Notes: generated by a model not told the origin, from the letters alone. A DNA stretch of 64,000 bases from Chthoniobacterales bacterium (GCA_039930045.1 JBDSQB010000002.1:262286-326285), one strand, 5' to 3'; counted from the stretch's first letter, positions 14,152 through 57,244 are shown. A program made the numbers and translations.

Positions 14152-14233
14152 GCCTTAATACTAGAAGCGCTAAGATTCAGGTGACGGGATTTTTGATTTG
14201 AGTTAGATTCGACTTCAACAACCCGGAGGAATT

Positions 14234-14326
14234 ATGGCAAAAGGAAATAACAGTCATCGCAAGGAAGTGAAGAAGCCCAAAAAGAAGACGCTTCCCGGAC
14301 AGGTCCAGCCACCGTCGAAAAACTAG
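14234..14326 (+). CDS. Small basic protein, 30 aa (MAKGNNSHRKEVKKPKKKTLPGQVQPPSKN)
   Basis: ATG preceded by GGAGGA at 14225-14230 with 3-nt spacing. Absent from the ORF track because it is short. It resembles small Lys-rich hypothetical proteins seen in other bacteria; this is from memory and unverified. Confidence 0.5.
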   Translation: MAKGNNSHRKEVKKPKKKTLPGQVQPPSKN

Positions 14327-14359
14327 AGCGGAATCAGGGCCCCTATTGAGTTGGGGAAA

Positions 14360-16239: not shown

Positions 16240-16620
16240 TCACTCGACTCGTCCGCGCATTTTCTTCGTGTCGCCGCGGCGTTTCTTCTGCTGGAGGATG
16301 CGCTCCTTCAGTCCGCGCGGCTTCGGGCGGTTGGCGCGTTTCACTTTTTCCCGCTCCGATTTCAATGCAGCCCGGCTGGCGGCCCGCTGTTCTTTGATTG
16401 TGGCAATGAGGCGTTCGCGAGCGAGCTGCCGATTCGAGAGTTGCGAACGATGATCCTGCACGCTCACTTGCAGTCCACTGGGACGATGGACCAGCGTGAC
16501 GGACGTGCTGACTTTGTTGACGTTCTGCCCGCCCGGCCCCGAGGAACGTTTGAAGGTTTCCTCAACGTCCTCGATGCGCAGCCCGAGCTTGCGGAGGGCG
16601 GCGGCAAATTCGGTGTCCAT
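16240..16620 (-). CDS. arfB: Alternative ribosome-rescue factor / peptidyl-tRNA hydrolase ArfB
   Basis: 126 aa. GGQ motif SSGPGGQNVNKV followed by a basic C-terminal tail. Confidence 0.85.
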   Translation of the reverse strand: MDTEFAAALRKLGLRIEDVEETFKRSSGPGGQNVNKVSTSVTLVHRPSGLQVSVQDHRSQLSNRQLARERLIATIKEQRAASRAALKSEREKVKRANRPKPRGLKERILQQKKRRGDTKKMRGRVE

Positions 16621-16696
16621 CGGAGTTAGGTTGAAGTCTGCTCAACGTTAGAGCGAAGTTTTTCTTTGGCGCGTCGGCATTTTTCCGAATTGGCGG

Positions 16697-16725
16697 TTGA
16701 CGCTCCCCTTTCCGATTTCTAGTGT
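16697..16725 (+). promoter_or_regulatory. Candidate sigma70-type promoter for sucCD: TTGACG, 17-nt spacer, TAGTGT
   Basis: Hexamers read directly, 32 nt upstream of the sucC ATG in the divergent arfB/sucC gap. Confidence 0.35.
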
Positions 16726-16756
16726 CAAAATTTCCTCCGCAGACCCGCCTCTTTTC

Positions 16757-17953
16757 ATGAACATCCACGAGTACCAAGCCCGCGAACTTTTTGCGAAATT
16801 TAATGTCGCCACACAACCCGGCAGCGTCGCCTCGACTCCAGCGGAAGCCGAACAGATCGCCGCAAAACTGGGTGGCAAGATCGTCGTCAAATCGCAGATT
16901 CACGCTGGAGGACGCGGCAAGGGCGTTTTCAAAAACGGCTTCAAGGGCGGCGTCCATTTGTGTGCAACTCCCGTGGAAGCCGGGGAGCTCGCCGGAAAAA
17001 TGCTCGGCCAAGTGCTGGTGACGCATCAGACCGGACCCGAAGGCAAGGAAGTGAGCAAAGTCTTTGTCGGCGCCGCGGTAAACATCCAGCGCGAGTTGTA
17101 TTTCGCCATTTTGCAGGACCGCGCGACGAGCGGTTACACGATCATCGCGAGCACCGAAGGCGGCGTGAATATCGAGGACGTGGCCGAGCACACGCCGGAG
17201 AAAATTCACCACGAACCCGTCCACCCCACACTTGGGTTGCAGTCGTATCAAAGTCGCAAGCTGGCACAAATCCTGGGTCTCGACGGCAAGCTGATGAATC
17301 AGGCGGTGAAGCTTTTTGGCAATCTCTACAAGCTCTTCATCGAGTGCGATTGCTCGATGGTGGAAGTCAACCCGCTGGTCGTCACGGACAGGGGCGAATT
17401 GCTCGCGCTCGATGCGAAATTTGGCTTCGACGACAACGCTCTCTATCGCCATCCCGACATCCTCGCGATGCGCGACAAGACCGAGGAAGACCCGCGCGAA
17501 GTCGCCGCATCGGAGTTCCAATTGAATTACATCGGTCTCGACGGAAACATCGCCTGTCTGGTCAACGGAGCCGGGCTCGCCATGGCGACGATGGACATTA
17601 TTCAATACGCCGGCGGCAACCCCGCGAACTTCCTCGACGTCGGCGGCGGCGCGACCAAGGAGCAAGTCGCAGCAGCCTTCCGAATCATCCTGGCCGACCC
17701 CAAAGTCGAAGGCATTCTCGTGAATATTTTTGGCGGCATCATGGATTGCGACATCATCGCCCACGGGATTTTGGCCGCGGCTGCGGAGACGGGTTTGAGC
17801 ATTCCCCTCGTCGTCCGGCTCGAAGGCAACAACGTCGCCGCTGGCAAAGCCACGCTGGCTTCCAGCGATCTGAAAGTTATCGGAGGCGACAACATTCTCG
17901 ACGCCGCCCAGAAGATCGTCGCAGCCGTCAGCGACGCTAAAAAAGCCGCCTAA
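16757..17953 (+). CDS. sucC: Succinyl-CoA synthetase beta subunit
   Basis: [13 protein letters not shown]-terminus, ATP-grasp region, [10 protein letters not shown] motif. Confidence 0.93.
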
Positions 17954-17961
17954 TTTCTCCC

Positions 17962-18858
17962 ATGTCCATTCTTGTCACGCCCACTACTAAGATTCTCATC
18001 CAAGGCATCACTGGCAGCTTTGGCGCGCGCCATGCCCAGCTTTCGCTCGACTACGGCAGCCAGGTTGTCGCCGGGGTTACGCCTGGAAAAGGCGGCCAGT
18101 TGTTTGCCAATGTCGTGCCAATTTTCGACACGGTCTCGCAAGCGGTGAGAGAAACCGGAGCCACTGTTTCGGCGATTTTTGTTCCGCCACCGTTCGCTGC
18201 CGACGCCATTTTGGAAGGCGTCGATGCCGGTCTCGATCTCGTGATTTGCATCACGGAAGGCATTCCGGTGAATGACATGGTGAAGGTGAAACACGCCATG
18301 AAAGGCAGCAAAACCCGTCTGATCGGCCCGAATTGCCCCGGCATCGTCACGCCTGGCACGGGGGAGAATTCCCATGGCGGCTGCCGCATCGGCATCGCAC
18401 CCGGTTACATTCATAAAAAGGGCAACGTCGGTGTCGTTTCGCGCTCGGGCACGCTCACTTACGAGGCTGTTTTCCAACTCACCACGCGCGGTTATGGCCA
18501 ATCGACTTGCGTTGGTATCGGCGGCGATCCGGTCAATGGCACGAGCCATTTGGACATTCTGAAAATGTTCAACGACGACCCCGAGACCGAGGCGATCATC
18601 ATGATCGGCGAAATCGGTGGCACCGCTGAGGAAGAAGCCGCTGAATGGGCGGGTCAGTATTGCAAGAAGCCGATCGCGGGCTTCATTGCCGGAGCCACCG
18701 CGCCTCCCGGACGCCGGATGGGTCACGCCGGGGCCATCGTCAGCGGAGGCAAAGGCACCGCCGCCGCCAAAATTGCCGCTCTCGAAGCCGCTGGCATCGC
18801 CGTTTCCCCGACGCCTGCCGGAATGGCCGACACGCTGCTGAAACACTGGAAGCGCTAA
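17962..18858 (+). CDS. sucD: Succinyl-CoA synthetase alpha subunit
   Basis: [16 protein letters not shown], and GHAGAI with the phosphohistidine. Starts 8 nt after sucC. Confidence 0.93.
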
Positions 18859-18895
18859 CATTTACATTTCAACCAAACTCAACTCTTAATAACCC

Positions 18896-20683: not shown

Positions 20684-22672
20684 ATGAGCGCAAAAGCCAT
20701 GACATCTGACAAAAACATAACATTACAGCCGGCAGGCCCGACGGATGCTACCTATCGCAGCATCGTGGAACATGCAATCGAAGGAATTTTCCAGACCACT
20801 CCCGATGGCCATTATTTGCTCGCAAACCCCGCTCTGGCATCGATTTACGGATATTCTTCGGTCGCCGAATTGTGCAGCGGAGTGCGGGAGATTGCCCGCC
20901 AGCTTTACGTCGAACCCACCCGGCGCAATGAGTTTCTCCAATTGATGAATGAGCAGGACGCGGTCTGGGGCTTCGAGTCTCCGATTCATCGCAAAGATGG
21001 GAGTGTGATTTGGATTTCCGAGAATGTGCGCGTGATTCGCGACGAAAATGGCGATGTTTCCTACTACGAGGGCACGGTCGAGGACATCTCGAATCGCAAG
21101 CACGCCGAGGAGCAGTTGCGCCGCGCCAAGGAAGCCGCCGAGGAAGCCAGCCGGTCGAAAAGCCAGTTTCTCGCAAACATGAGCCACGAGCTGCGCACAC
21201 CGCTCAACGCCATTATCGGCTACAGCGAATTGCTCCACGAGGAAGCCGAGGACATGGGCGAGAAAAGTTTCTGCGACGATCTGAAAAAAATCGAGAAAGC
21301 CGGCAAGCACCTGCTCGATCTCATTAATGGCGTGCTCGACATTGCCAAGATCGAGGCTGGCAAAATGGAAGTCCACGTGGAGGAATTCGACATCGCCGAA
21401 ATGCTCCAAGACGTCGGCAGCACGGTCACCCCGATCATTGAGAAAAAAGGCAACCGTCTCGTCATCGAAACCGCGCCCGGCTTGGGAAAAATGCAGACCG
21501 ACCTGACCAAGGTCCGCCAGTCGCTTTTCAATCTGCTCGGCAATGCGGGCAAATTCACCGAAAACGGCCTCGTCACTCTCTCGGCCCGCCGGCAGTCAGA
21601 CTCAGACAAAGACTGGATCATTCTCCAGGTGCGCGACACCGGCATCGGCATGACCAATGAACAAGCGTCGCGAATTTTTGAGGCATTCACCCAGGCTGAT
21701 TCGTCCACGACCCGGAAATTTGGCGGCACCGGGCTGGGGCTCACCATTACCCGCGAGTTCTGCCGCTTAATCGGCGGCGAGGCGACCGTCACGAGCACAC
21801 TGAAACTCGGCTCGACTTTCATGATCAAGCTGCCCGCGATTTTTTCCGCCGAGGATCAGCAGCCGGCCTCCATCACGTCATTCCAGATTGAGCCGGAAAT
21901 GGAAAACTCCGAGCAGCCGCTCGTGCTGCTGATCGACGACGATCTCACCATTCACGATCTGGTGAAACGCTTCCTGCACAAGGAAGGCTTCCGCACCATC
22001 TGCACGCAAAACGGCGCGGACGGACTCGACCTGGCCCGGCGCCTGCAACCGTCGGTCATTGTTCTCGACGTGATGATGCCGACGATGGACGGATGGTCCG
22101 TTCTTTCGCGGCTGAAAAGCGACCCGGTTTTATCTAACATCCCGGTCGTCATGCTCACCATGGTGGACGACAAGGCGATGGGCTACACTCTGGGCGTGGA
22201 CGATTACATGCTCAAGCCCATCGAGCGCGTGGATTTCGTGGGTGTGCTGCGCAAGTTTTGCGATCAGAACAACCCCGGAACGGTGTTAGTCGTCGAGGAT
22301 GATGACACCTCGCGCGAGCTGGTGCGCGACATGTTAGAAAAAGACCACTACACCGTCATCGAAGCTCGCAACGGCCTGGAAGGTCTCGAGCGACTCACGG
22401 GCGTGGTGCCGACCATGATCCTGCTCGATCTCATGATGCCCGAGATGGATGGCTTTGAATTTGCCGCTGCCGTCCGCAAAATCCCCAAGCTAACCAACGT
22501 CCCCATCGTGGTGATGACGGCAAAGGACATCACCTCGCAAGACCGCACCCGCCTCGAGGGCCATGTCGCGCGCGTCATGCAAAAAGGCCTCTATGGCCGC
22601 GACGATTTGCTTGCCGAAATCCGCTCACATATTTTGCGGGCGACTTCCAATCCAATGGTCGCCGCCGCCTGA
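20684..22672 (+). CDS. Hybrid sensor histidine kinase: PAS, HisKA, HATPase, REC, REC
   Basis: H-box MSHELRTPLNAIIGYSELL. HATPase motifs (NLLGNAGKFT, DTGIGM, GGTGLGL). Two receiver domains (LLIDDD..VLDVMMPTMDG and LVVEDDD..LLDLMMPEMDG). Confidence 0.88.
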   Translation: MSAKAMTSDKNITLQPAGPTDATYRSIVEHAIEGIFQTTPDGHYLLANPALASIYGYSSVAELCSGVREIARQLYVEPTRRNEFLQLMNEQDAVWGFESPIHRKDGSVIWISENVRVIRDENGDVSYYEGTVEDISNRKHAEEQLRRAKEAAEEASRSKSQFLANMSHELRTPLNAIIGYSELLHEEAEDMGEKSFCDDLKKIEKAGKHLLDLINGVLDIAKIEAGKMEVHVEEFDIAEMLQDVGSTVTPIIEKKGNRLVIETAPGLGKMQTDLTKVRQSLFNLLGNAGKFTENGLVTLSARRQSDSDKDWIILQVRDTGIGMTNEQASRIFEAFTQADSSTTRKFGGTGLGLTITREFCRLIGGEATVTSTLKLGSTFMIKLPAIFSAEDQQPASITSFQIEPEMENSEQPLVLLIDDDLTIHDLVKRFLHKEGFRTICTQNGADGLDLARRLQPSVIVLDVMMPTMDGWSVLSRLKSDPVLSNIPVVMLTMVDDKAMGYTLGVDDYMLKPIERVDFVGVLRKFCDQNNPGTVLVVEDDDTSRELVRDMLEKDHYTVIEARNGLEGLERLTGVVPTMILLDLMMPEMDGFEFAAAVRKIPKLTNVPIVVMTAKDITSQDRTRLEGHVARVMQKGLYGRDDLLAEIRSHILRATSNPMVAAA

Positions 22673-22690
22673 ACCTAACATTATTCTCTC

Positions 22691-23068
22691 ATGCCCAAGC
22701 TATTGTTAGTAGAAGACAACGAAATGAACCGAGACATGCTCCAGCGCCGTCTGCAGCGCCGGGGATTTGAAGTCCTCATCGCCGTCGATGGCGGCGAGGG
22801 AGTCGCCCTGGCCGTCGAGCAGACTCCCGACCTCATCATTATGGACATGAGCCTGCCCGTCCTTAATGGCTGGGAGGCCACCCGCCAGATCAAGAGCCTG
22901 CCTGCGGCAAAACATATCCCGGTACTAGCATTGACCGCCCACGCCATGGCCGGCGAACGCGACCGCGCCCTGGACGCGGGTTGTGACGACTACGACACCA
23001 AGCCGGTTGATTTTACCCGCCTAACTGGAAAGATAGACAAGCTCCTGCAAGGAATCGCCGCCTCCTAA
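22691..23068 (+). CDS. Single-domain response regulator (CheY-like)
   Basis: KLLLVEDNEMNRD, IIMDMSLPVLNGWE, DYDTKP. Confidence 0.88.
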   Translation: MPKLLLVEDNEMNRDMLQRRLQRRGFEVLIAVDGGEGVALAVEQTPDLIIMDMSLPVLNGWEATRQIKSLPAAKHIPVLALTAHAMAGERDRALDAGCDDYDTKPVDFTRLTGKIDKLLQGIAAS

Positions 23069-23069
23069 C

Positions 23070-25496
23070 ATGACCGCCCAACTCGATCTGCCGACACGAC
23101 CCGATTTGCAACATGAGTTGCACGATCTGCGCACACCGCTGAATCAGATCATCGGTTTCAGTGAAATGCTTCAGGAGATCGCGCAGGAGGAAGGCCGCCA
23201 CGATCTGCTCGATGGCCTCGCCACCGTCTGCTCGGCAGGCATCGAACTCACTTCGCTCCTCGCCGACACCCGCCTCATTTCGCTAACTAACAACGACGAC
23301 CAGGAATACTGGCCGCTCGTCGATGCGGTGCGCTCTCCGATCAGCCGCGTGTTAGGTTTCGCCGACCTCATTCTCGCCGAACCGCCCGAGGCGCATCTTT
23401 CCAGCTATAACGAGGACATCGAAAAAATCCGCACTGCCGCCGCCATGTTCTTCGTCAAGGCACGGGCGAGTCGCATTGTTATCCGGATCGAGGCCGCGCG
23501 CGACTGGACCGCAGGCACGCCACGCCAGACCACTAGCGCCAGCCCGGAAAGCGTGGGCCGCGTTCTCATCGTTGATGACGAAAATCTCAACCGTGAGATT
23601 CTCTGCCGCCGCTTGTTGCGTGAGGGCTACAGTTCGCTAGGAGTCGCCAGCGGACATGCCGCTCTGGAGGCTTTGCGGAAGGAGAAGTTCGACATCATTT
23701 TGTTAGACATCATGATGCCCGGAATCGGCGGCATCGAGGTCTTGCAAACTCTCAAGCAGGACGAGACCCTGCGCCATTTGCCCGTCCTCATGCTTTCCGC
23801 TCTGTCCGACGTGGATCGCGTCGCGCGCTGCGTCGAGTTAGGCGCGGATGACTATCTGCCCAAGCCTGTGAATGCGATCTTACTCCGTGCGCGCCTCGGT
23901 GCCTGCATGGAAAAGAAACGCCTGCGCGATCACGAGCAAGCCAGCTTGCGCGAATTGGACTCCGAAAAAGAACTTCTCAGCGTCACGCTGCAATCGCTGG
24001 TCGACGCCGTCGTCACCACCGATGCGGAAGGCCGCATCGTTCTCTTTAACAATGGCGCGACAGTCCTCACAGGCCGCTCCGCCAACACTGCGCGCGGGCA
24101 GTTTTTCGCCGACGTCTTCCCGATTTTTGACCGAACTAACAATCAGCCCGCGGCAGACATTGCACGCGAGGCATTGCAACTTCGCGCCGTCGTGGACACA
24201 CCGTCCGGCCACACAATGATCACGCCGCTCGGGGAGCGGATCATGGCCGCCCACGCCGCTCCGATCCAGGGCCACGATGGCGGCATCAAAGGCACGGTCG
24301 TCGTCATTCGCGACGTCACGGAAAAAGAAAAAATCGCCGAGGAAGTCCTGCGCTCCAGCAAGCTGGAATCCATCGGCGTACTAGCTGGCGGACTCGCCCA
24401 CGACTTTAATAACATGCTCACCGCCGTCATCGGCAATCTCTCCCTGCTGCGTCACGGCGTCGATCCCTCGCCCGACATCATGCATCGCCTCGACGAAGCC
24501 GAGGAAGGCGCGCTGCGAGCCCGCGATCTCGCGCAATATCTCCTAACCTTCGCCGAGGGCGGCGCGCCGCTGAAGAAAGTAGTCGAGCCTGCCGCGCTGC
24601 TTCGCGAGACCACTGAATTCGTCGTTCGCGGCTCGCGGGTCGATTGCGATTTTGAGCTGCCCGACGACCTCTGGAAAGTGGAGGCCGACCCCGGCCAGTT
24701 CACCCAAGCCGTCTCGAATGTCGTGATGAATGCCGCGCAAGCCATGCCCGAGGGCGGCACGATTTTCCTCTCCGCGGAGAACATCATGATCGAGGAAGAC
24801 AGCGATCTAACCTTGCCTGGCGGGGCCTACGTTTCCATCTCCATTTCCGACATGGGAGTGGGCATTCCGGCAGAACATCTGCCGCGCATTTACGATCCAT
24901 TTTTCACCACGAGAAACCAGGCGCGCGGACTCGGTCTGGCCGCGACCTATTCCATTATTCATCGCCACGGCGGCTTGATCGATGTCGAGTCCACGCCCGG
25001 TTACGGCACAAAAGTTCACCTGCTCCTGCCTGCGGTGGAAGTGGCTTCGGCCCCTGAACCATCGGAACACATTTCCACTCCTGGGCAGCCTGCCGAACCT
25101 CTCTCCGGCCAGCGTCTGCAACGCGTGCTCGTGATGGATGACGAGGCTTCCATTCGCGAAGTTTGCGCCGACTTGCTCAAGCTCCTCGACTACGAAGTCG
25201 TCACCACCAGCGACGGGGCCGAGGCGCTCGCCGTCTATCATCAGGCGCAACAAAGCGGTACTCCATTCGACCTCATCATCACCGACCTCACCGTCCCCGG
25301 CGGCATGGGAGGGGCCGAGGCTATGCGTCGTCTGCGCGAGAGTGGCTCGAAGGTACGCGCCATCGTTTCCAGCGGCTACTCGAATGGACCCGTCATGAGC
25401 CATCCCGCCGAATATGGGTTCCAGGGCGTGCTGCCCAAACCGTATCGTCTGCACGACCTCGAAGCCGTCCTGCAAAAGGTCGCCGCCGCTGGCTGA
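23070..25496 (+). CDS. Multidomain hybrid kinase: N-terminal ATPase-less H-box module, REC, PAS, HisKA, HATPase, REC
   Basis: N-terminal HELHDLRTPLNQIIGFSEML with no following ATPase. REC (VLIVDDENLN..LLDIMMPGIGG). PAS region. Second H-box GLAHDFNNMLTAV. HATPase (SDMGVGIP..GLGLA). C-terminal REC (VLVMDDE..ITDLTVPGGMGG). ATG lies 1 nt after the upstream stop. Confidence 0.85.
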   Translation: MTAQLDLPTRPDLQHELHDLRTPLNQIIGFSEMLQEIAQEEGRHDLLDGLATVCSAGIELTSLLADTRLISLTNNDDQEYWPLVDAVRSPISRVLGFADLILAEPPEAHLSSYNEDIEKIRTAAAMFFVKARASRIVIRIEAARDWTAGTPRQTTSASPESVGRVLIVDDENLNREILCRRLLREGYSSLGVASGHAALEALRKEKFDIILLDIMMPGIGGIEVLQTLKQDETLRHLPVLMLSALSDVDRVARCVELGADDYLPKPVNAILLRARLGACMEKKRLRDHEQASLRELDSEKELLSVTLQSLVDAVVTTDAEGRIVLFNNGATVLTGRSANTARGQFFADVFPIFDRTNNQPAADIAREALQLRAVVDTPSGHTMITPLGERIMAAHAAPIQGHDGGIKGTVVVIRDVTEKEKIAEEVLRSSKLESIGVLAGGLAHDFNNMLTAVIGNLSLLRHGVDPSPDIMHRLDEAEEGALRARDLAQYLLTFAEGGAPLKKVVEPAALLRETTEFVVRGSRVDCDFELPDDLWKVEADPGQFTQAVSNVVMNAAQAMPEGGTIFLSAENIMIEEDSDLTLPGGAYVSISISDMGVGIPAEHLPRIYDPFFTTRNQARGLGLAATYSIIHRHGGLIDVESTPGYGTKVHLLLPAVEVASAPEPSEHISTPGQPAEPLSGQRLQRVLVMDDEASIREVCADLLKLLDYEVVTTSDGAEALAVYHQAQQSGTPFDLIITDLTVPGGMGGAEAMRRLRESGSKVRAIVSSGYSNGPVMSHPAEYGFQGVLPKPYRLHDLEAVLQKVAAAG

Positions 25497-25538
25497 AGCC
25501 TTGCGAAACCAGCCGAGCCCGCTTAATTAGGGGCCGCC

Positions 25539-26351
25539 ATGCAGATTTCACTGGAAGACGCCTACACCGATGTCATCGCCAAGGCCCAGCGCGGCCTCGG
25601 CCTGGCCGACAGTCAGCTCGCGGAACAATCCGGAATCGCTCTCGCAGAACTCAAAAATCTCAAGTCCGGCCACGTCGATCCAGCCGTCCTGCAAGCCATC
25701 GCACCCGTGTTGCATTTGAGTTTGAGTGCACTCATCCAGCTCGCGGAGGGAAACTACCAGCCCGATGTTAGTCTGCCCGATGGGCTCGCCGTTTTCAACA
25801 CGCCCTACGAGGATTACACGGTGAATTCCTATCTCGTCTGGGATCCGGCCACACGCGATGCCATCGTCTTCGACACCGGTTCCGACGCCACGGAACTCCT
25901 CCACACCATCGTGTCCAATGGACTCAAAGTCCGCTCTATTTTACTAACCCACACGCACGGCGATCACGTCTTCGACCTGGACCGCGTTGTGGAAAAGACT
26001 GGCGCTCCCGTCTTTACTAACATTCGCGAACCACTGGAAGATGCAGCCCCTTTTTCCGAGGGAGCGACATTCGAATGCGGCTCGCTGCGTATTGGCACTT
26101 TGCTAACCCATGGACACTCCCCGGGCGGCACGACATTTGTCGTTTCTGGTTTGGAGAAACCCATCGCCATCGTCGGGGATTCCCTTTTCGCCGGCTCCAT
26201 GGGCGGATCAACCGCCTGGGAATTGGCGCTGACTAACAATCGCGAAAAGATTCTCACTCTTCCCCCAGAAACCATCATTTGCCCCGGTCACGGCCCGCTC
26301 ACCACAGTCGAGTTCGAGTTGAATCACAATCCCTTCTACGCGCCGCGATGA
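25539..26351 (+). CDS. MBL-fold metallo-hydrolase (glyoxalase II-like) with an N-terminal HTH-like segment
   Basis: THTHGDHV zinc motif, later HGHSPGG and PGHG. The first ~70 aa (LADSQLAEQSGIALAELKNLKSG) look like a Cro/XRE-type helix-turn-helix. Confidence 0.8.
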   Translation: MQISLEDAYTDVIAKAQRGLGLADSQLAEQSGIALAELKNLKSGHVDPAVLQAIAPVLHLSLSALIQLAEGNYQPDVSLPDGLAVFNTPYEDYTVNSYLVWDPATRDAIVFDTGSDATELLHTIVSNGLKVRSILLTHTHGDHVFDLDRVVEKTGAPVFTNIREPLEDAAPFSEGATFECGSLRIGTLLTHGHSPGGTTFVVSGLEKPIAIVGDSLFAGSMGGSTAWELALTNNREKILTLPPETIICPGHGPLTTVEFELNHNPFYAPR

Positions 26352-27439
26352 TCCGCCATCTCTATGTGCACATCCCGTTTTGCCCGAAGGTTTGTCCGTA
26401 TTGTTCCTTCTACAAGGAGGCCTCGGATCGCAACAAGACGCAGCGTTTCCTAGACGCGGTTCTATCCGAGTTAAATGCCGCTCAGAAGACACACCAGCTT
26501 CAACCTGAGACAATCTTTTTCGGCGGCGGCACTCCCACGGCGCTGAGCACACCGCAACTCAGCTATTTGTTGGAAGGTCTCCGCGAGCGGCTAGATATCA
26601 CGCATCTCCACGAATGGACTCTGGAGATGAATCCAGCCACGGTTTCCCTCGAGAAAGCGGCGCGGCTGCGGGAGCTGGGAGTCAATCGCGTGAGCATGGG
26701 CGTGCAGGCCTGGGACGAGGCGACTTTGAAAGCATTGGGCCGCGTCCATTCGGCGGAACAAGCCTTGCGCTCGTATCACATCTTGCGCGAGGCGGGTTTT
26801 TCTAACATCAACCTCGACCTCATCTTTGGCACTCCCGGACAAAGCCAGGAAGTCTGGTTCGACAACTTAAAAAAGACAATCGAGTTAGAACCGAATCACA
26901 TCTCCGCCTACTGTCTAACCTACGAAGAGGACACGGAGTTTTTTCGCCGCTTTCAAAGTGGCGAGTTGCAGCAGGATGAGAACGCCGACGCTGATCTCTA
27001 CGAGGGAAGCATCGCGATGTTAGAAGCCGCTGGCTACGTTCAGTACGAGACCTCGAACTACGCGCGCCCTGGATTCGAGTGTGAGCATAATCTGGCCTAT
27101 TGGTTAGGATACGATTATCTCGGGCTGGGCCCCAGTGCGTTCTCCACGGTCGGCAGTGCGCGCTGGAAAAATCTCCCCGACACCACGGCTTACTGCCAGC
27201 TCATCGAAAGCTGCGGAGAGGCGAAGTCTTTCCATGAATCCGTCACGCCCGAGATTCGTCACAGCGAGCTAGTCGCATTCGGGTTGCGCACGAATCGCGG
27301 CGTTTCGATGTTAGGACTTCCCCTGCCGCAGATCGCGCGCCTAACCGCAGATGGGTTTCTAACTCAAATGGAAGATCGCGTCTTCCTAACCAAACAAGGC
27401 CGGCTCGTCGCCGACAGCGTGGCCGAGCTGCTTATCTAA
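26348..27439 (+). CDS. hemW: Radical SAM family heme chaperone HemW (HemN-like, oxygen-independent coproporphyrinogen oxidase family)
   Basis: HIPFCPKVCPYCSFY CxxxCxxC motif, GGGTP, HemN_C-like tail. ATGA overlap with the upstream gene. Confidence 0.85.
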   Translation: MIRHLYVHIPFCPKVCPYCSFYKEASDRNKTQRFLDAVLSELNAAQKTHQLQPETIFFGGGTPTALSTPQLSYLLEGLRERLDITHLHEWTLEMNPATVSLEKAARLRELGVNRVSMGVQAWDEATLKALGRVHSAEQALRSYHILREAGFSNINLDLIFGTPGQSQEVWFDNLKKTIELEPNHISAYCLTYEEDTEFFRRFQSGELQQDENADADLYEGSIAMLEAAGYVQYETSNYARPGFECEHNLAYWLGYDYLGLGPSAFSTVGSARWKNLPDTTAYCQLIESCGEAKSFHESVTPEIRHSELVAFGLRTNRGVSMLGLPLPQIARLTADGFLTQMEDRVFLTKQGRLVADSVAELLI

Positions 27440-27440
27440 C

Positions 27441-28631
27441 ATGGCTTTTCAATTCGACGTCATCATCGTGGGAGCGGGACCGGCGGGCTCGGTTTGCGCC
27501 ACCGTCTGCGCGCGCCAGGGCATGAGAGTCCTCGTGATTGATCGTGAAAAATTTCCCCGCGACAAGGTCTGCGGCGACTGCCTGAATCCCGCCGCCTGGA
27601 AAGTGTTACAGCGCCTCGGCATCGACGAACGCATTCGTTCCCTGCCCCATTCGCCTCTGAAAAAGGTGCAGATTGCTACGATCAACGACCGCGTTTTCGA
27701 TTTCCCGCTGCATGGCGGCGAGGCGGGCGAGATCGGCATTCGGCGACGCGAGCTGGACCTGACTTTGATTCAAATGGCGCGTGCTGCCGGTGCGGCGTTT
27801 CTGGAAAACACAGCGGTGACTTCCGTCCAGGGGAACTGGCAGATCGAGGCGGGCGGCCGGCATTTCACCGCAAAGACGCTCGTCGCCGCAGACGGACGCA
27901 ACTCGACCGTGGCCCGGCTCCTCGGGATGATGCCCGCGCAGCAAAAAGACCGCGTCGGCATCCAGACGCACGTGCCGCTCGCGTCGCATCAATTCAACTC
28001 GGTTCGCATGCAACTCCACCCCGAGGGTTACAGCGGCGGCGCGAGCATCGGGGACAACCTTTGGAATCTCTGCCTAGTCGCCCGTGGCGAAAACATCGAG
28101 GCGCTCAAGCAGCGGGCCACGAAACTCTGGAAGCTCCCGTCGAACTTGCACTGGCGCAGCCTGACTCCACTCAGCCGCCGCCCGCTCCCTGCTGCGAAGG
28201 GCTCCCTATTTCTCGTCGGCGACGCCGCCCGCGTGGTGGAGCCTTTCACCGGCGAGGGAATTTATTACGCCCTCGCGAGTGGCGAACTGGCCGGACAAAA
28301 CATCACGCAGCCCGACGTTTACCGGAAAAAGCACGCCGAGCTTTATCGCGGTCGCCTCTGGGTCAATCAGCTTGCGAAATGGGCCGTGCTGCACCCAGTC
28401 GCCACGAGCTGGGCTCTGGAAAACCTCCCCGCTGAGCGGATTCTCAGTCACCTCACTGCCAAAGTGACCGCTCCTGTCGTGAAAACGCCTAGTAACCCGT
28501 CTCGCCGCCGCGATTTCCGCCCTTCTGGGGCACCTCGTGCGGGGCTTCCTGCTGACTACCCTTTTCAGGATGCCCATGTTCCTCGTGCAATGGTGCCGTT
28601 TCCTCCGCAGAATGACGTTCACACGCCGTAA
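27441..28631 (+). CDS. FAD-dependent oxidoreductase (geranylgeranyl reductase family)
   Basis: DVIIVGAGPAGS Rossmann motif, GDCLNP, and LVGDAARVVEPFTGEGI. The last ~55 aa are Pro/Arg-rich and overlap a convergent small gene, so the true C-terminus is uncertain. Confidence 0.8.
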   Translation: MAFQFDVIIVGAGPAGSVCATVCARQGMRVLVIDREKFPRDKVCGDCLNPAAWKVLQRLGIDERIRSLPHSPLKKVQIATINDRVFDFPLHGGEAGEIGIRRRELDLTLIQMARAAGAAFLENTAVTSVQGNWQIEAGGRHFTAKTLVAADGRNSTVARLLGMMPAQQKDRVGIQTHVPLASHQFNSVRMQLHPEGYSGGASIGDNLWNLCLVARGENIEALKQRATKLWKLPSNLHWRSLTPLSRRPLPAAKGSLFLVGDAARVVEPFTGEGIYYALASGELAGQNITQPDVYRKKHAELYRGRLWVNQLAKWAVLHPVATSWALENLPAERILSHLTAKVTAPVVKTPSNPSRRRDFRPSGAPRAGLPADYPFQDAHVPRAMVPFPPQNDVHTP

Positions 28632-28671
28632 AAAGGGCGACTGAGCAGAGCAGGAGCAGGAAAGATTTCAT
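28489..28671 (-). CDS. Small His/Glu-rich lipoprotein, 60 aa
   Basis: Strong signal peptide with lipobox (MKSFLLLLCSVALFTAC). Mature part contains HEEHGH. Last gene in line with the efflux operon. Overlaps the 3' end of the convergent flavoprotein ORF. Confidence 0.5.
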   Translation of the reverse strand: MKSFLLLLCSVALFTACERHSAEETAPLHEEHGHPEKGSQQEAPHEVPQKGGNRGGETGY

Positions 28672-28724
28672 TCGCGCTTTCTACACGGCGCGGCGGGCGG
28701 CGGGAAGCACGTTTCGCAGAAAAT

Positions 28725-29951
28725 TTACTCAAACCGCAGCGCGTCCACCGGGTCGAGGGCGGCGGCCTTGTGCGCGGGATACATTCCGAAGCCGATCCCG
28801 ATGGCGCTGCAAACGATCAAACCCACGATCGCCCAGCCCCAGGGAAAAAAGACGGACGCCTTCAGGAGCAGCGCGAGTCCATTGCCGCCGACCGCCCCGA
28901 GAATGATCCCAGCCAAGCCGCCCAGTTCGGAAATGAAGAGGCTCTCGAGGAGAAATTGCCCGAGAATGTCCCCTCGCCGCGCCCCGAGGGACTTGCGGAC
29001 GCCGATTTCCTTGGTTCGCTCGGTCACGCTGACGAGCATGATGTTCATGATGCCGACTCCGGCTGCAATCAGGGCGATGCCGCTGATGACAAAGGCCCCG
29101 ATACGAATGGTACCCGCGACCTGCGTGAAGGCGGCGGTGAGCGAGTCGTTGGAATAAATATCGAAGTTGTCGGGGTCTTCCACGCGCAGGCCGCGGACTT
29201 TGCGCATGAGCCCGACGGCGTGCCCGAGGGTGGCGTCGTAGGTCGCCTGGGTTTGGGATTGGACGGAAATGTTCAGACTCCGCGAGCTTTCGCCGAAGTC
29301 CGCGAAGAACCGCGTGATCGGGATGGCGCAGGTGTTGTCGTTCGAGCCGCCGAAGCCGGAGCCTTTGGTCTCGAAAACGCCGACGACCTGATAATTCTTC
29401 CCGCTGATGCGCAGGGTTTTGGCCAGCGGAGTCTCGTTGGGAAACAATTTATCGCGCAGGTCGCCGCCGATCACGATCACCGCGCGCGCCATGTCCACAT
29501 CGCCGGCGCTGATCATCCGCCCCTCGCCGATTGTCTGGCTGTTCGCCTGGAGAAAATACTCGTTCGTCCCCACGAGTTGCTGGTTGGGATTCGTCTTGCG
29601 CCCGCCGTAAGTCGCCGCGACGCCCCCCTTGAAAATCTTCAGGCAGACCACGTCCGTCTTGTCGCTCATCAGCCGCGCAAACTGCACGCCCTGCGCGTAG
29701 CTGATGTTGGGCCGGTTGCGATATTTCTCATTGTCGTTCCCGTGGAAGACGGGCGTGCGGGAGAATTGGAAAATGTTCGAACCGAGGAAACTGAGGCCGC
29801 TCTCGATGCTGCCCTGGAGCGCGGAAATCGCGGTCATCACGCCAATCACGGAGAAAACGCCGATCGTAATGCCGAGCATGGTGAGCGCCGAGCGGAGTTT
29901 GTTCGCGCCGAGGGAACTGAGCGCCATGCGAAAGATGTCGGAGCGTTTCAT
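28725..29951 (-). CDS. ABC transporter permease (MacB-like periplasmic core plus FtsX domain)
   Basis: N-terminal TM (LRSALTMLGITIGVFSV), large periplasmic domain, C-terminal FtsX-type 3-TM block ending DPVDALRFE. Confidence 0.88.
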   Translation of the reverse strand: MKRSDIFRMALSSLGANKLRSALTMLGITIGVFSVIGVMTAISALQGSIESGLSFLGSNIFQFSRTPVFHGNDNEKYRNRPNISYAQGVQFARLMSDKTDVVCLKIFKGGVAATYGGRKTNPNQQLVGTNEYFLQANSQTIGEGRMISAGDVDMARAVIVIGGDLRDKLFPNETPLAKTLRISGKNYQVVGVFETKGSGFGGSNDNTCAIPITRFFADFGESSRSLNISVQSQTQATYDATLGHAVGLMRKVRGLRVEDPDNFDIYSNDSLTAAFTQVAGTIRIGAFVISGIALIAAGVGIMNIMLVSVTERTKEIGVRKSLGARRGDILGQFLLESLFISELGGLAGIILGAVGGNGLALLLKASVFFPWGWAIVGLIVCSAIGIGFGMYPAHKAAALDPVDALRFE

Positions 29952-29971
29952 GGCAGTGGCGCGGAGCAGAG

Positions 29972-30085
29972 TCTTCGGGAGCGCACGCGTCTCGCGTGTT
30001 CCCTTTTGAGTCCCGCGAAAGGGCCGGTTCTCGCCATCGGACGGGACGTCCGCTGGAACACGCGGGACGCGTGCGCTCCCGGGGA
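29972..30085. repeat. Long near-perfect inverted repeat: ~27-31 bp arms, ~52-nt structured spacer
   Basis: Left arm GGGAGCGCACGCGTCTCGCGTGTTCC (29977-30002) is the reverse complement of the right arm GGAACACGCGGGACGCGTGCGCTCCC (30055-30080) with one mismatch. An inner GTCCCG/CGGGAC stem is present. It lies in the 147-nt gap between the two permease genes. Confidence 0.75.
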
Positions 30086-30098
30086 AAAGATTGTGCTC

Positions 30099-31349
30099 TT
30101 ACTCATACCTCAACGCATCGATGGGGTCCAACCGCGACGCCGACCACGCGGGCGCAAAACCCGAGACGATCCCCGTGAGCACTGAGACCAGCAGGGCGAT
30201 GAAAGTCAGCCCAAACGAGAAGCTCACGGGGAAGCTCGGGACGGCCGACGAGAGCCCGATGAACGCCGCGCCCGAGAGCACGATCCCGATGAGACCGCCG
30301 ATCAGGCAAATGGTCACGGCCTCGATCAAAAACTGCATCAGGATGGAACTCCGGCGCGCGCCGAGCGCCTTGCGGGTGCCGATTTCGCGCGTCCGCTCCT
30401 TCACGCTGACAAAGGTGATGTTCATGATCCCGATTGCGCCGACGAAGAGCGACAGCCCGGTAATGAAGATGCCCGCCAGGGCGATGCCGGTCTTGATCGG
30501 GCCGATCGTGCTGCGAAACGCCTGCTGCTCGTTGAGCGAAAAATCGTCGCGTTTCTCCGGCAACAACCCGCGAATGCGCCGCATGATGCCAGTCAATTCC
30601 TCCTTCGCCTCCAGGAGCCGCAGCTTGGATTTCACTTTCACCCGAATGGCGGCGTCCTCGTCGGCCACGAAGTATTTCTTAAGCGCGCCGACCGGGATCA
30701 CGACCTGCTGGTCCCACGAAAACAGCCCGAGGAAGGAGCCTTGCTTCGCGAAAACGCCGACGATGCGAAACAGATGGTTGCCCACTTCGATGGTCTCGCC
30801 GATGGGGTTTTCCGAGGGGAAAAGCGACGTCGCGATGTCGAGCCCGATCACGCAAACGGAGATCGCCCCGCGCGACTCGGCCTCGGTGATGAAACGTCCG
30901 CGTTCGCACTCGGTCGTGGAGGTGCGGGTGAAGTCGTTCGTGGTGCCGAGGGTGTAAACCGTGTCCACTTTGCGTCCGCCACGGGAGACGGTTTTGAAAA
31001 CGACGGGCGCGGGAACGGCGAGTTCGAGCAGAGTGTTGGGCGTGTCGGCGATGATGCGGTTGATCTGGGCCGCGTAGTCGGTGCTGATCTTCCGGCGGTT
31101 GCGAAACAGGGCGAAGTCCTCGCTCGGGCCCCACGGTGTTTTTGTGACGTAGAGCACGTCGTCGCCGAGGAGGGAGAGCGAACGGTCGAACCCGGTATCG
31201 ATCCCGTTGATCGCAGTGCCCATGAGGGTGACGGCGATGATGCCGATGACGACGCCGAGCGCGGTGAGGGAGGAGCGGGTGCGGTTCGCGAGGATTTGTG
31301 TCCAGGCGATGCGCAGGCTTTCGCCCAGTTCGTAAATCAGACGGTGCAT
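30099..31349 (-). CDS. ABC transporter permease (MacB-like periplasmic core plus FtsX domain), second copy
   Basis: Same architecture as the downstream permease, ending DPIDALRYE. Start taken at MHRLIYELGE. A GTG at 31373 is an alternative start. Confidence 0.88.
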   Translation of the reverse strand: MHRLIYELGESLRIAWTQILANRTRSSLTALGVVIGIIAVTLMGTAINGIDTGFDRSLSLLGDDVLYVTKTPWGPSEDFALFRNRRKISTDYAAQINRIIADTPNTLLELAVPAPVVFKTVSRGGRKVDTVYTLGTTNDFTRTSTTECERGRFITEAESRGAISVCVIGLDIATSLFPSENPIGETIEVGNHLFRIVGVFAKQGSFLGLFSWDQQVVIPVGALKKYFVADEDAAIRVKVKSKLRLLEAKEELTGIMRRIRGLLPEKRDDFSLNEQQAFRSTIGPIKTGIALAGIFITGLSLFVGAIGIMNITFVSVKERTREIGTRKALGARRSSILMQFLIEAVTICLIGGLIGIVLSGAAFIGLSSAVPSFPVSFSFGLTFIALLVSVLTGIVSGFAPAWSASRLDPIDALRYE

Positions 31350-31476
31350 GATAAGAATGTCACACGGAGGCACGGAGATATACGGAGGGTTTGAGGGAAC
31401 TTATCTCGCTTTTGAGTTGCATCTGAATAGGACCCATGGGGGCGGATAAGTCCGATAAAGGTGCCCAAACCCGGGG

Positions 31477-32217
31477 TTAAATCGGGATGTCGCTCTCGAT
31501 GAGGCCGTCGCGTAGCCGCACGACGCGCCGGGCGTGCTGGGCGATGTCTTCCTCGTGCGTGACGACGATGATGGTGTTCCCAGCTTGGTAAAGGGTCTCG
31601 AAGAGCGCCATGATTTCCTCCCCGGTCTTGCTGTCGAGGTTGCCCGTGGGCTCGTCGGCGAGGATGATCGAGGGGCTATTGACGAGGGCGCGGGCAATGG
31701 CGACGCGCTGACGCTGCCCGCCGGAAAGTTCGTTCGGTTTATGGTGCATTCGCTCGCCCAATCCGACCGAGGTGAGGGTGGCGGCGGCGCGCTTCGAGCG
31801 TTCCTCGCGGCTGATGCCGGCATAGACGAGGGGCAGCTCGACGTTGGCGAGGCTGGTGGAGCGCGGGAGGAGGTTGAAGGTCTGGAAGACGAAGCCGATC
31901 TCGCGGTTGCGGATGGTGGCGAGGTCGTCATCGGTCATGGCGGCGACGTTTTTCCCAGAGAACTCGTAGTGGCCCGCACTGGGGGTGTCGAGGCAGCCGA
32001 GCATATTCATCAAAGTCGATTTGCCGGAGCCCGACGGGCCCATGATGGCGAGGTATTCGTTGCGATGAATGCGTAGATTGACCCCGCGCAGGGCCTTGAT
32101 GGTGGTGTCGCCCATGATGTATTCGCGGGTGAGCCCGCGGATGTCGATAACGAGCGGCCCCGGCGGTCGGGTGGTGCGCGAATGGACTGTGGTGGTGGGA
32201 AGGGTGGTGGCGCTCAT
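31477..32217 (-). CDS. ABC transporter ATP-binding protein (MacB/LolD family)
   Basis: [36 protein letters not shown]. Confidence 0.92.
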
Positions 32218-33537
32218 CTATTTGGATTCGTCTTTCTTCGGTTTCTCGATGGTCACAGAGCTGCCATCTTTGAGCTCGCGACTGATCGCTCCGTAGCTGC
32301 CGCTGATGATTTCCTCGCCGCCGGTGAGTCCGGCTTTGATTTCGATGTAACTGTTGTCGCTCAGGCCGGTGACGACTTTTTTCATGACGGCTTTCCCGCC
32401 GTTCTTGAGGAAGACGACGCGCTGCAGTTTCTCCCGGTCGGAACGCCCGGTGTCGGTGGTGGAACTGCCGGCCTGCTTCTGCTCGGCGTCGCGTTTTTCG
32501 TTGATCTCGGTCATGCTTTTGCCCTCGTCGCGGGTGCGAACGGTGACGCTTTGGATCGGGACCGTGAGGACGTTTTTCACGCTGGCGACCTGGATGTCGG
32601 CGGTGGCGCTCATGCCGGGCCGGAGCGCGACGCCGGGGGCAATGATCTGGATTTTGACCTCGAAATTGGTGACTTCCTCGGTGGTTTTCTCCGCGGTGAC
32701 GGTCGCCGAGCTGGCGACGTGCTTCACGATTCCACTGAAAGTCCGGTCGGGGTAGGCGTCGATGCTGATCCGCACCGGGTCGCCGAGGTGAATGGTGACG
32801 ACGTCGTTCTCGTTGACGTTGGCGCGGACTTCCATGTCGTCGAGGTTGGCGACGCGCATGATTTCGGTGCCCGCAAACTGCGCGGTGGCGACGACGCGTT
32901 CGCCCAGCTTGCTGGTGAGGAGCGAAATGGCCCCGTCGGTGGGCGCGTAGATGCTGGTTTTGACGAGTTCCTCGCGAATCTGCGAAAGCTGACCCTCGGC
33001 GCGTTTGATGTTGAAGGTGGAAGCGTTGTAACTGGCCTCGGCGACATCGCGATTGGTCTGCGCGTCGGCGATTTCACTGTCGGAGGCGATCTTTTTGTCG
33101 AAGAGCGCCTTCTGCCGCCGCAGGTCCTGCTCGGCCTTCAAGAGCTGGGCCTTGCGCTGGAGATTGTCGGCGCGGGCGGAGTCGAGCGCGGCCTCCTGCT
33201 GCTCGACCTGGGCTTGGTAAACGTCGGGCTTGATCTTGACGATGAGGTCGCCTTTTTTCACCGTCTGCCCCTCGATCACGGGCAATTCAATGATCTCGCC
33301 TGCGACCTCGGCGGAGATTTTGACTTCGAGGGCCGGCTGGATCTTTCCCGTGGCGGAAACGACTTGGGTGACATCGCGGCGGCCGACTTTCTCGGTGGTG
33401 ACTTCGATGGTTTTCTCTTTTTTGCGCCCAAATAGGACGCCGCCGATGATTAAAAAGAGAATGACTGCTGTGATCCAGAGCCAGCGCCGGCGATTTTTCG
33501 GAGGGGCTGCGGGGGGAGTTAGGGCGGAATCGGGCAT
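32218..33537 (-). CDS. HlyD/MacA-family periplasmic adaptor
   Basis: N-terminal TM (WLWITAVILFLIIGG), biotinyl-lipoyl-like hairpin, long coiled-coil region, beta-barrel C-terminus. Directly abuts the ATPase gene. Start is uncertain and could extend to 33627. Confidence 0.85.
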   Translation of the reverse strand: MPDSALTPPAAPPKNRRRWLWITAVILFLIIGGVLFGRKKEKTIEVTTEKVGRRDVTQVVSATGKIQPALEVKISAEVAGEIIELPVIEGQTVKKGDLIVKIKPDVYQAQVEQQEAALDSARADNLQRKAQLLKAEQDLRRQKALFDKKIASDSEIADAQTNRDVAEASYNASTFNIKRAEGQLSQIREELVKTSIYAPTDGAISLLTSKLGERVVATAQFAGTEIMRVANLDDMEVRANVNENDVVTIHLGDPVRISIDAYPDRTFSGIVKHVASSATVTAEKTTEEVTNFEVKIQIIAPGVALRPGMSATADIQVASVKNVLTVPIQSVTVRTRDEGKSMTEINEKRDAEQKQAGSSTTDTGRSDREKLQRVVFLKNGGKAVMKKVVTGLSDNSYIEIKAGLTGGEEIISGSYGAISRELKDGSSVTIEKPKKDESK

Positions 33538-33669
33538 GAAGCGATTTTTATTTATGTCTGGCGCGGAAACAGCTTTCTTACAGGGAACTTCTCCCGTGTC
33601 CATGCGTGCGTCCAGAATCCATTTCACCTTTAGATGCCGCGCGGCGGTATTTGTTTCAAATCTTCGGAA

Positions 33670-40343: not shown

Positions 40344-40365
40344 ACAAAATTTGGTAGTGGTTGGG

Positions 40366-40401
40366 GCCGGGGCATCCATCAGGGGTGCCCCGGCTTTTTT
40401 T
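40366..40401 (+). terminator. Rho-independent terminator
   Basis: 9-bp perfect stem GCCGGGGCA / TGCCCCGGC, 11-nt loop, then seven T residues. Begins 23 nt after the stop at 40343. Confidence 0.75.
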
Positions 40402-40470
40402 CATTTGAGTTAGATTCCATTCAGAAAACTCTTGGAATCTGCCGCTGGATTCGCTATTTCACTCAACTTC

Positions 40471-55809: not shown

Positions 55810-55819
55810 AACCAACATC

Positions 55820-56596: not shown

Positions 56597-56602
56597 ATCG
56601 TT

Positions 56603-57244
56603 ATGCTGACCTTTAAGCCCACCCAAGTTCCGCGTCAGATTTTATTGTTAGGAGCACACTCCGACGACATAGAGATTGGTTGCGGCGGAACTGTGTTGCA
56701 GCTCGTCGAGAAGTATCCCGATGCGCTTTTTATTTGGGTGGTGATTTGTTCCAATGAAGAACGCGCGAAGGAAGCTCATGCAAGCGCCGAAGCGTTTCTA
56801 GGCAAGGATGTCTTGCGCGATATTAGGATTTTTTCTTTCCGCGATGGGTTTCTTCCATGGCTGGGCATGGAAGTGAAGGAGACTTTTGAGAAGATCAAGA
56901 TCGATACTGCGCCGGACTTGATCTTCACCCATTCGCGAGAGGATCGACATCAAGATCACCGCACACTTTGCGAACTCACCTGGAATACTTGGCGCGATCA
57001 TTCAATCTTTGAATACGAGATTCCCAAGTATGATGGCGACCTTGGTCAGCCTAACACTTTTGTCTCTTTGAGTGCGAAGCAAGCGACGTTGAAAGTGAAT
57101 TACTTGATGGAGTTTTTTGGTACACAACGAAGCAAGCGCTGGTTTACTCCAGAGACTTTTCAAGCCATGATGCGGCTGCGCGGAATCGAGGCTGGATCGG
57201 AAATGGCGGAGGCGTTTTACACCCGGAAGTTTTTGATTAGCTAG
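56603..57244 (+). CDS. PIG-L/LmbE family deacetylase
   Basis: LLLGAHSDDIEIGCGGT and HQDH motifs. Confidence 0.8.
   Translation: MLTFKPTQVPRQILLLGAHSDDIEIGCGGTVLQLVEKYPDALFIWVVICSNEERAKEAHASAEAFLGKDVLRDIRIFSFRDGFLPWLGMEVKETFEKIKIDTAPDLIFTHSREDRHQDHRTLCELTWNTWRDHSIFEYEIPKYDGDLGQPNTFVSLSAKQATLKVNYLMEFFGTQRSKRWFTPETFQAMMRLRGIEAGSEMAEAFYTRKFLIS

Follow-up and report, generated by a model that had tools for sequence, protein, structure and literature searches.

Why should a single five-nucleotide word be crowded into a few kilobases of coding DNA, beginning inside one gene and ending exactly at the stop codon of another? This question is raised by a 64-kb stretch of a Chthoniobacterales bacterium genome (GCA_039930045.1, JBDSQB010000002.1:262286-326285), the whole of which is called here the window, and in which a preliminary description had noticed a dense tract of CTAAC and its complement GTTAG at positions 22134-27440. 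The scripted count yielded 31 copies in this tract (20 CTAAC and 11 GTTAG, 5.8 per kb) and reproduced every one of the 31 positions that had been tallied by hand; the earlier reservation that the pattern might vanish on such a recount can be dropped. The pattern is real and of high significance, and none of the described motif systems that we tested accounts for it. It resembles in kind the DNA uptake sequences, the highly iterated palindrome 1 (HIP1) of cyanobacteria and the GATC clusters of Escherichia coli, and is set apart from them by the length of the word, its asymmetry and, above all, its island structure.

The window (58.1% GC) contains 86 copies of the motif (48 CTAAC and 38 GTTAG), 64 of which lie within three tracts at approximately 1.1-5.3, 22.1-27.4 and 54.7-57.6 kb that together make up 20% of its length (islands 1, 2 and 3). 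Outside the islands, 21 copies are scattered over 50.5 kb (0.4 per kb), and at this rate 2.26 copies would be expected in island 2 instead of the 31 observed (Poisson P ~1e-24). Among the 479 pentamers tested, CTAAC is the most clumped one (dispersion 5.1, the next unrelated word having 2.1), and about 40 of the 43 CTAACA hexamers are found inside those 2-kb bins that hold islands; the same scan of the window detected no complementary word occupying the motif-poor regions. Chance clustering, misassembly or erroneous base calling might in principle produce such a picture, and nothing was found in favour of any of them. The island sequence is 100% identical in independent short-read (Logan) assemblies from two sequencing runs and is therefore not an assembly artefact, while orthologous copies are conserved, with intact reading frames, in metagenome-assembled genomes (MAGs) from different studies. 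We regard this explanation as refuted, its probability being virtually nil.

The borders of island 2 proved to be as sharp as described, and as independent of gene and operon structure. Segmentation of the motif density by penalised likelihood, the change-point analysis that had been proposed, placed them at 22101 and 27450. The left one falls inside the gene (ORF-based, like the whole gene list) of hybrid histidine kinase 1 (20684-22672, PAS-HisKA-HATPase-REC according to Pfam), at codon ~483: there are no copies from 20684 to 22133 and four in the last 0.55 kb, or, in terms of synonymous opportunities to form the motif, none of the 25 to the left of 22134 was used, in contrast to 4 of the 17 to its right. 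From here sub-tract 2a (22134-24811, 16 copies) covers the end of kinase 1, the 18-bp spacer behind it, with a copy at 22675-22679, the stand-alone receiver-domain response regulator (22691-23068), whose own TAA stop is part of the CTAAC at 23065-23069 that directly precedes the ATG of hybrid histidine kinase 2 (23070-25496, 8 of 41 opportunities used), and the first 72% of the latter gene. A gap at 24812-25766, comprising the end of kinase 2, a spacer and the start of the next gene, is indeed free of copies and leaves 17 synonymous opportunities unused. Sub-tract 2b (25767-27440) then carries 15 copies, at the density of 9.0 per kb claimed earlier, over the genes of a metallo-beta-lactamase-fold (MBL) hydrolase (25539-26351, 5 of 22 opportunities) and of the radical-SAM haem chaperone HemW (26348-27439, 363 amino acids as called in L001; 9 of 24 opportunities plus the copy at the stop codon). 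The last copy, C-TAA-C at 27436-27440, spans the hemW stop and is directly followed by the ATG of a flavin adenine dinucleotide (FAD)-dependent monooxygenase gene (27441-28631), in which, as had been noted, there are no copies (0 of 16 opportunities used); the next one occurs only at 33518. If opportunities of each type were realised at the island rates, the first 25 in kinase 1 would all stay unused with a probability of 9e-4 and those of the FAD gene with one of 0.006; for the internal gap, taken in the window alone, the value of 0.025 is marginal.

The next question is whether the word is a DNA signal or a codon habit. In hemW, 14 of the 45 leucine codons are TTA or CTA, 13 of these being followed by A or G, just as had been counted by hand, and nearly every copy of the motif contains at least one rare codon; clusters of rare leucine codons might thus slow the ribosomes or require a rare tRNA in the manner of bldA. 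All genes of island 2 lie on the plus strand, yet both orientations of the motif are used, and the copies occupy every reading frame that is permitted: within genes they take the forms CTA-ACN (Leu-Thr), NCT-AAC (x-Asn), NNG-TTA-GNN (Leu) and GTT-AGN (Val-Ser/Arg), and of three junction copies two are C-TAA-C stop codons and one is located in an intergenic spacer. No leucine codon is involved in 8 of the 31 copies of island 2 and 10 of the 21 copies of island 1, so that the TTA/CTA codons are not the unit of the pattern. In the island, 10 of 14 TTA codons are in fact G-TTA-G and 11 of 19 CTA codons are CTA-AC, and CTAA is followed by C in 31 of 32 cases; outside the motif context both codons are as rare here as elsewhere, i.e., their excess is entirely due to the motif. 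When the codons were shuffled synonymously, with the protein and the island's own codons kept, 4.73±2.02 copies were obtained against the 28 observed in coding sequence, and none of 5000 shuffles reached 28; resampling from the background codon usage gave 2.5. The counts are thus far from the equality that, in the preliminary description, would have spoken against the island. The motif was formed at 11 of 21 Leu-Thr opportunities in island 2 (52%; background 10 of 86), 6 of 15 x-Asn opportunities (40%; background 1 of 131) and 10 of 59 G-Leu-G opportunities (17%; background 1 of 449). In addition, hemW and the FAD gene, which are translationally coupled and have equal GC content at third codon positions (GC3), contain 10 and 0 copies, respectively, and after masking of the motif the GC3 of island 2 is 0.718, with 0.69-0.80 in background segments, its codon usage also being inside the background spread. 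Codon usage or expression as a cause is ruled out by the shuffle and by the contrast of hemW and the FAD gene, as the preliminary description had anticipated in arguing against expression-linked codon bias, and we consider the translational explanation refuted and very improbable. The signal is a strand-symmetric pentamer at the DNA level.

Non-coding DNA tells the same story. Inside islands the motif density is 12.7 per kb in non-coding and junction DNA and 5.0 per kb in coding DNA, with the reservation that the island mask used for this comparison was defined from the motif itself and that, in relatives, a crude gene finder was the source of some intergenic calls. In the loci of the window and nine others (L083, L084, L087, L169, L171, L173, L174, L175 and L089, see below), 21 of 72 TAA stops have the C-TAA-C context, about 3.5 times the prediction from base composition; many of these are CTAAC-ATG stop/start junctions, such as those at 23065 and 27436 in the window. 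The motif is thus written by synonymous codon choice, tolerated amino-acid replacements, TAA stops and spacers.

What exactly is being written appears to be short. A position weight matrix extending 20 nt to either side of the motif contained five invariant bases, flanks of at most 0.3 bit per position and no second half-site, hence no longer or bipartite motif. The weak flanking preferences are T at positions -2/-3, not-G at +1 and A/T at +2; the base after the core in the 31 copies is A in 16, C in 9, T in 6 and G in none. Three copies, at 22119-22141, 26002-26024 and 26787-26809, are alike over a longer stretch, G..TTT(T/A)NCTAACAT(C/T); they encode like peptides, [VF][LF][ST]-N-I, and fit the preference for a T-rich upstream and an A/T downstream side, which may hint at a slightly longer preferred site. 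Within the islands the copies show neither helical nor other spacing periodicity, being spaced at random, neither evenly nor in clusters, and no pattern of orientation, CTAAC and GTTAG being mixed in each of them. Beyond the pentamer, no extended repeat or mobile element was recognised in the islands, only chance and domain-level repeats, and no Rfam match was obtained. The transition neighbours of the motif are mildly enriched in islands: CTAGC occurs 18 times against 3.8 expected, with CTAGC/GCTAG found 5, 6 and 7 times at 1001-5300, 22134-27440 and 54700-57600 (1.3, 1.6 and 0.9 expected), and TTAAC and CTAAT are raised too. The excess of CTAGC is due either to a halo of mutations or to tolerance of a variant form, CTARC; as a halo, it implies that copies are continuously being lost by mutation. 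Elsewhere CTAGC is very rare, and at some orthologous sites it swaps with CTAAC between lineages. Point conversion from a single precursor (deamination or a Vsr-like process) was considered and rejected, as no one-mismatch neighbour is depleted enough (CTGAC, 2 against 6.4 expected).

Who carries this trait? By its HemW the window belongs to Chthoniobacterales (Verrucomicrobiota), the nearest species representative in the genome collection being no more than 66% identical. A protein search provided 11 related loci with HemW at least 75% identical (75-88%), which were compared at the DNA level (the clade loci). All 11 show islands, with motif-rich stretches adjoining motif-poor ones, overall densities of 0.6-2.8 copies per kb, a CTAAC/CTAA ratio of 0.33-0.72 and, in the richest 3 kb of each, 5-20 copies. 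In 133 more distant Chthoniobacterales loci (each 5 kb or longer, surrounding hemW or the UvrA-like gene described below; 1.97 Mb in total), the density is 0.33 per kb, the ratio is 0.25, as by chance, and there are at most 8 copies per 3 kb; the trait is absent already from the nearest outgroup MAG, SMAG_U106 (loci L003 and L178). The trait therefore defines a genus-level clade of Chthoniobacterales, a soil and freshwater lineage, in whose islands the pentamer stands at about 10-14 times the background. Lack of the enrichment in close relatives, which had been named as a sign of mere drift, is true only of the more distant ones; the genus-level relatives are enriched. In L177 (25.5 kb, from the same MAG as L087) the motif is diffuse, with 1.6 copies per kb, 0-4 in each kilobase throughout, a CTAAC/CTAA ratio of 0.48 and no sharp islands, so the degree of islanding varies among lineages.

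The locus of island 2 is syntenic in all clade members, with the gene order of the window in L083, L084, L087 and L171, and this allows the island maps to be compared; they coincide in part only. The MBL gene and hemW are motif-rich in the window, L169, L083, L173, L084 and L087 and empty in L171 and L089; the final copy at 27436-27440 is likewise conserved in all clade lineages examined except L171 and L089. The kinase genes are rich in the window and L084 (kinase 1 also in L087 and L171) and poor in L083, where 1 of 83 opportunities is used; a cluster of copies at the kinase 1/regulator/kinase 2 junction recurs in L084, L087, L171 and L089 and is missing in L083. The FAD gene has 1-4 copies in L083, L084 and L173 and none in the window, L169, L087 and L171. 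The region of the kinase 2 end and MBL start is rich in none of the lineages and nearly empty in all, the orthologue of the gap having no copy in L084 and one each in L083 and L087.

How old these arrays are can be judged from neutral sites. Compared with L084, L087 and L173, the window shows an identity of 0.36-0.43 at four-fold degenerate sites, where composition alone would give about 0.35; neutral sites are therefore saturated in these comparisons. Despite saturation, both partners in each comparison keep about 5 copies per kb in hemW, and the MBL/hemW region is motif-rich in all. Island 1 (1125-5222, 21 copies within a UvrA-like gene) shows the same phenomenon and serves as an independent replicate. 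In this gene 22 of 96 opportunities are realised in the window, 17 of 94 in L174 and 23 of 88 in L179 (amino-acid identity to the window of 95% and 87%, respectively), with 3 of 90 in the outgroup; 13 of the 22 window sites are common with L179 at a four-fold identity of 0.46, ten core sites are present in the window, L174 and L179, 3-6 sites are private to each lineage, and the first ~370 codons are free of the motif in all three. The encoded protein (12-5531, 1839 amino acids) consists of duplicated UvrA/ABC modules, is annotated as an excinuclease subunit UvrA in MAGs and has 62-67% identity across Chthoniobacterales. The window and L174 have 12 of 21 sites in common, a proportion close to that of control pentamers (0.40-0.59), and much of the array therefore turns over near-neutrally. 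In the MBL gene and hemW, copies found only in the window or only in L169 stand where the other lineages leave the dipeptide unrealised or lack it, and these private copies are gains on terminal branches, some of them via an amino-acid change. Since the islands outlast synonymous saturation, core sites are kept and new copies arise, the arrays are maintained by an ongoing motif-specific pressure on double-stranded DNA. Taken together, the islands represent a balance between mutation and this continuing positive pressure for CTAAC, which operates in some tracts and not in others.

Could the islands instead be no more than a record of mosaic ancestry, i.e., tracts received from a CTAAC-rich lineage, or remnants left after replacement by motif-poor DNA, that are now decaying? 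The borders that ignore genes would be natural in this case; L084, motif-rich over nearly its whole 8.8 kb, is, at the protein level, the lineage closest to the window in the kinases; the numbers of shared and private sites in the window and L174 are compatible with simple decay of some 30 ancestral sites, and the halo of transition neighbours testifies to mutational loss of copies. As to recombination or gene conversion, to which the preliminary description had pointed, amino-acid identity ranks do switch along the locus, L084 being closest in the kinases and L169 and L083 in the MBL gene and hemW; from hemW to the FAD gene, identity to L083 falls from 0.88 to 0.70, that to L169 remaining at 0.88. 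The lineages must therefore have exchanged DNA in the past, the switches being judged broad and old because synonymous sites are saturated. In the four to six relatives compared, the switches are not sharply aligned with 22134 or 27440, and in sliding comparisons of the nucleotide sequence with L083, L084 and L087 the identity does not change abruptly at either position; old mosaicism is thus indicated and a breakpoint at the borders is not. In a 200-bp dip in identity to L169 (27226-27419), the differing motif copies themselves account for part of the decrease. Tract-wise replacement could explain the loss of the kinase island in L083 but not the persistence of islands: with four-fold sites at chance identity to L084 and L087, an import common to these lineages must be older than the time for which the motif would persist neutrally, and the density is still about ten times the background. 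Compositional foreignness of island 2 was looked for as well and not found, its codon usage and masked GC3 being native-like. Neither does island 2 look like a horizontally acquired island in other respects, having typical composition, being composed of core genes that are syntenic in all relatives and containing no mobility genes. Island 3 (54757-57590, 12 copies), which alone is low in GC and foreign-like, lies in a cluster of sugar- (polysaccharide-) modification genes of an exchangeable kind and is in keeping with import. Considering also the gains on terminal branches, and that a donor would itself need a process generating the motif, we hold mosaic ancestry alone to be improbable.

The main rival is molecular drive without any function for the cell, in which motif-bearing DNA is preferentially transmitted, through a transformation bias like that of uptake sequences or through motif-directed short-patch mismatch repair (as by Vsr) acting on heteroduplexes; the islands would then be the most-recombining tracts or those in which carrying the motif is cheapest. 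Uptake sequences are 9-12 bp long, are spread fairly evenly over the genome at about one per kb and are missing mainly from recent imports. They are the closest known clade-specific words in coding DNA, present in all frames and both orientations, and, like the uptake signal sequences (USS) of Pasteurellaceae and the DNA uptake sequences (DUS) of Neisseriaceae, CTAAC is clade-specific, over-represented in both orientations and fitted in by codon choice and tolerated residues. Uptake sequences favour poorly conserved genes and residues, and their positions, kept among close relatives, change with growing distance (PMC2817400); in a comparable way, several copies of the x-Asn type sit where other lineages are without the dipeptide. 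The tract sizes of 1.7-5 kb, which resemble recombination tracts, the near-neutral turnover between the window and L174, the tract-wise differences of island maps and the past exchange of DNA evident from the rank switches are all in keeping with drive. Unlike USS and DUS, CTAAC has a core of 5 bp with weak flanks, reaches local densities of 5-9 instead of about one per kb and is patchy, 80% of the window, including conserved core genes such as ClpC, tricarboxylic acid cycle genes, aconitase and dnaX, being at background. To our knowledge, no competence link of such a word has been reported in this phylum. As to repair, no one-mismatch neighbour is depleted as Vsr-like conversion predicts, the transition neighbours being mildly enriched instead. 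The lack of a discontinuity in identity at the island borders also tells against drive, as does the conservation of borders and core sites across near-saturated divergence. On balance we find drive rather unlikely, while far from negligible.

The reading that we tentatively prefer, at somewhat less than even confidence, is that a clade-specific factor binds or modifies double-stranded DNA at the copies, which would form arrays of its recognition sites. Such a factor, for instance a silencer-like or nucleoid-associated protein or a reader that depends on a methyltransferase, would recognise the pentamer with low specificity and act on domains of a few kilobases, placing selection on the local density of sites and not on their exact position, orientation or spacing; the random spacing and the absence of helical periodicity and of any orientation pattern agree with this. 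Borders would be set by the extent of a nucleoprotein or epigenetic domain and not by genes, which would account for one border within a kinase gene and another precisely at the junction of two translationally coupled genes. Their stability is supported by the motif-free start of the UvrA-like gene, the FAD gene (in four lineages) and the kinase 2/MBL gap. The wider proposition that the genus marks multi-kilobase domains with an asymmetric pentamer, at up to half of the synonymous opportunities, and that the density is read by a DNA-binding or DNA-modifying system is possible, but here we are more inclined to doubt.

Several observations weigh against recognition by a dedicated factor. A site of 5 bp holds little information for a specific binder, and no candidate reader gene or DNA methyltransferase was found among the genes of the window. 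A function tied to the locus predicts conserved maps, yet the maps differ, as in the kinases of L083, in the empty MBL/hemW regions of L171 and L089 and in the diffuse pattern of L177. The sharing of hemW sites between saturated lineages is about that of independent draws at 20-40% saturation, and selection on individual sites is therefore shown for the core subset only. Finally, all of the evidence comes from comparison, and drive, whether selfish or neutral, would leave a very similar footprint.

Among other known words, the closest functional analogy is offered by the GATC clusters in the coding sequences of a subset of E. coli genes, read as a methylation-dependent regulatory signal at the DNA level (PMC493266). 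As in these clusters, which are related to Dam and SeqA, the word is short, uneven and clustered inside the coding sequences of some genes. GATC, though, is a palindromic tetramer that forms short clusters and has a known methyltransferase and reader, whereas CTAAC is asymmetric and its tracts of 1.7-5 kb cross gene borders. HIP1 is an 8-bp palindrome spread over whole cyanobacterial chromosomes, present in very high copy number inside genes and long maintained; CTAAC shares with it the lineage-specific occurrence within genes and differs in being a non-palindromic pentamer confined to islands. Xenogeneic silencers also recognise short words (AACTA/TACTA in the case of Rok, AT-rich nucleation sites in that of H-NS and Lsr2), whose abundance is a by-product of AT-rich foreign DNA. 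Like them, CTAAC contains TpA, is rare in the background and is concentrated in domains of several kilobases, where a nucleoid protein could nucleate and spread past gene borders; in contrast to the silencer words, it is one exact pentamer that is enriched, and islands 1 and 2 have native composition and synteny. We know of no silencer in Verrucomicrobiota. Polar words such as Chi or the FtsK-orienting polar sequences and SpoIIIE recognition sequences (KOPS/SRS) differ from CTAAC, which has no strong strand skew in the window. Words that shape coding sequence are rare, and each of those known (uptake sequences, Chi, HIP1) has either exposed a machinery or remained an open puzzle. A literature search for this pentamer, or for over-represented words in Verrucomicrobia, gave nothing relevant.

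What is distinctive here is a word of 5 bp in tracts with sharp borders that ignore genes, maintained past synonymous saturation in an uncultured and widespread lineage. If a reader protein or a modification exists, it would be a new bacterial way of marking chromosomal domains, for silencing, epigenetic state or chromosome organisation, for example, and the domain-marking code, if true, would be undescribed in bacteria. If drive is the cause, the clade offers a clean natural case of motif-biased transmission locally reshaping codon usage. In either event, CTAAC islands distort analyses of codon usage, horizontal transfer and selection in these genomes.

As for the rest of the window, the segment that adjoins island 2 on the right (27441-33627: the FAD monooxygenase, two MacB-type permeases, an ABC ATPase and a HlyD-family adaptor) surpasses the rest of the window in GC3 (0.80) and, among background pieces, deviates most in codon usage (chi-square 162, 41 df); the FAD gene taken alone does not differ from hemW. 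Two minus-strand ORFs of the background gene list (16562-17764 and 17950-18861) have no Pfam match and overlap the plus-strand ORFs 16697-17953 and 17962-18858; judging from synteny, they are probably shadow ORFs, as GC-rich genomes typically have, called on the wrong strand over sucC/sucD. In relatives, a small accessory gene of the AbiEii toxin family is located between the succinyl-CoA ligase subunit genes of L083 (1073-1600) and L174 (5132-5659), a glyoxalase fragment takes this place in L084 (1291-1566), and Fic-domain genes are inserted beside citrate synthase in L174.

One more feature of the background is the 14-mer TTTGAGTTAGATTC, which occurs exactly twice in intergenic DNA of the window (14197-14210 and 40404-40417), accounts for two background GTTAG copies and, with up to two mismatches allowed, has four matches against 0.2 expected. 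The first copy lies upstream of a small basic ORF of 30 codons with a GGAGG ribosome-binding site (~14235-14327), the second one follows a GC-rich hairpin with a T-run (~40364-40400) and is upstream of the next gene; the 14-mer may be a promoter or operator element.

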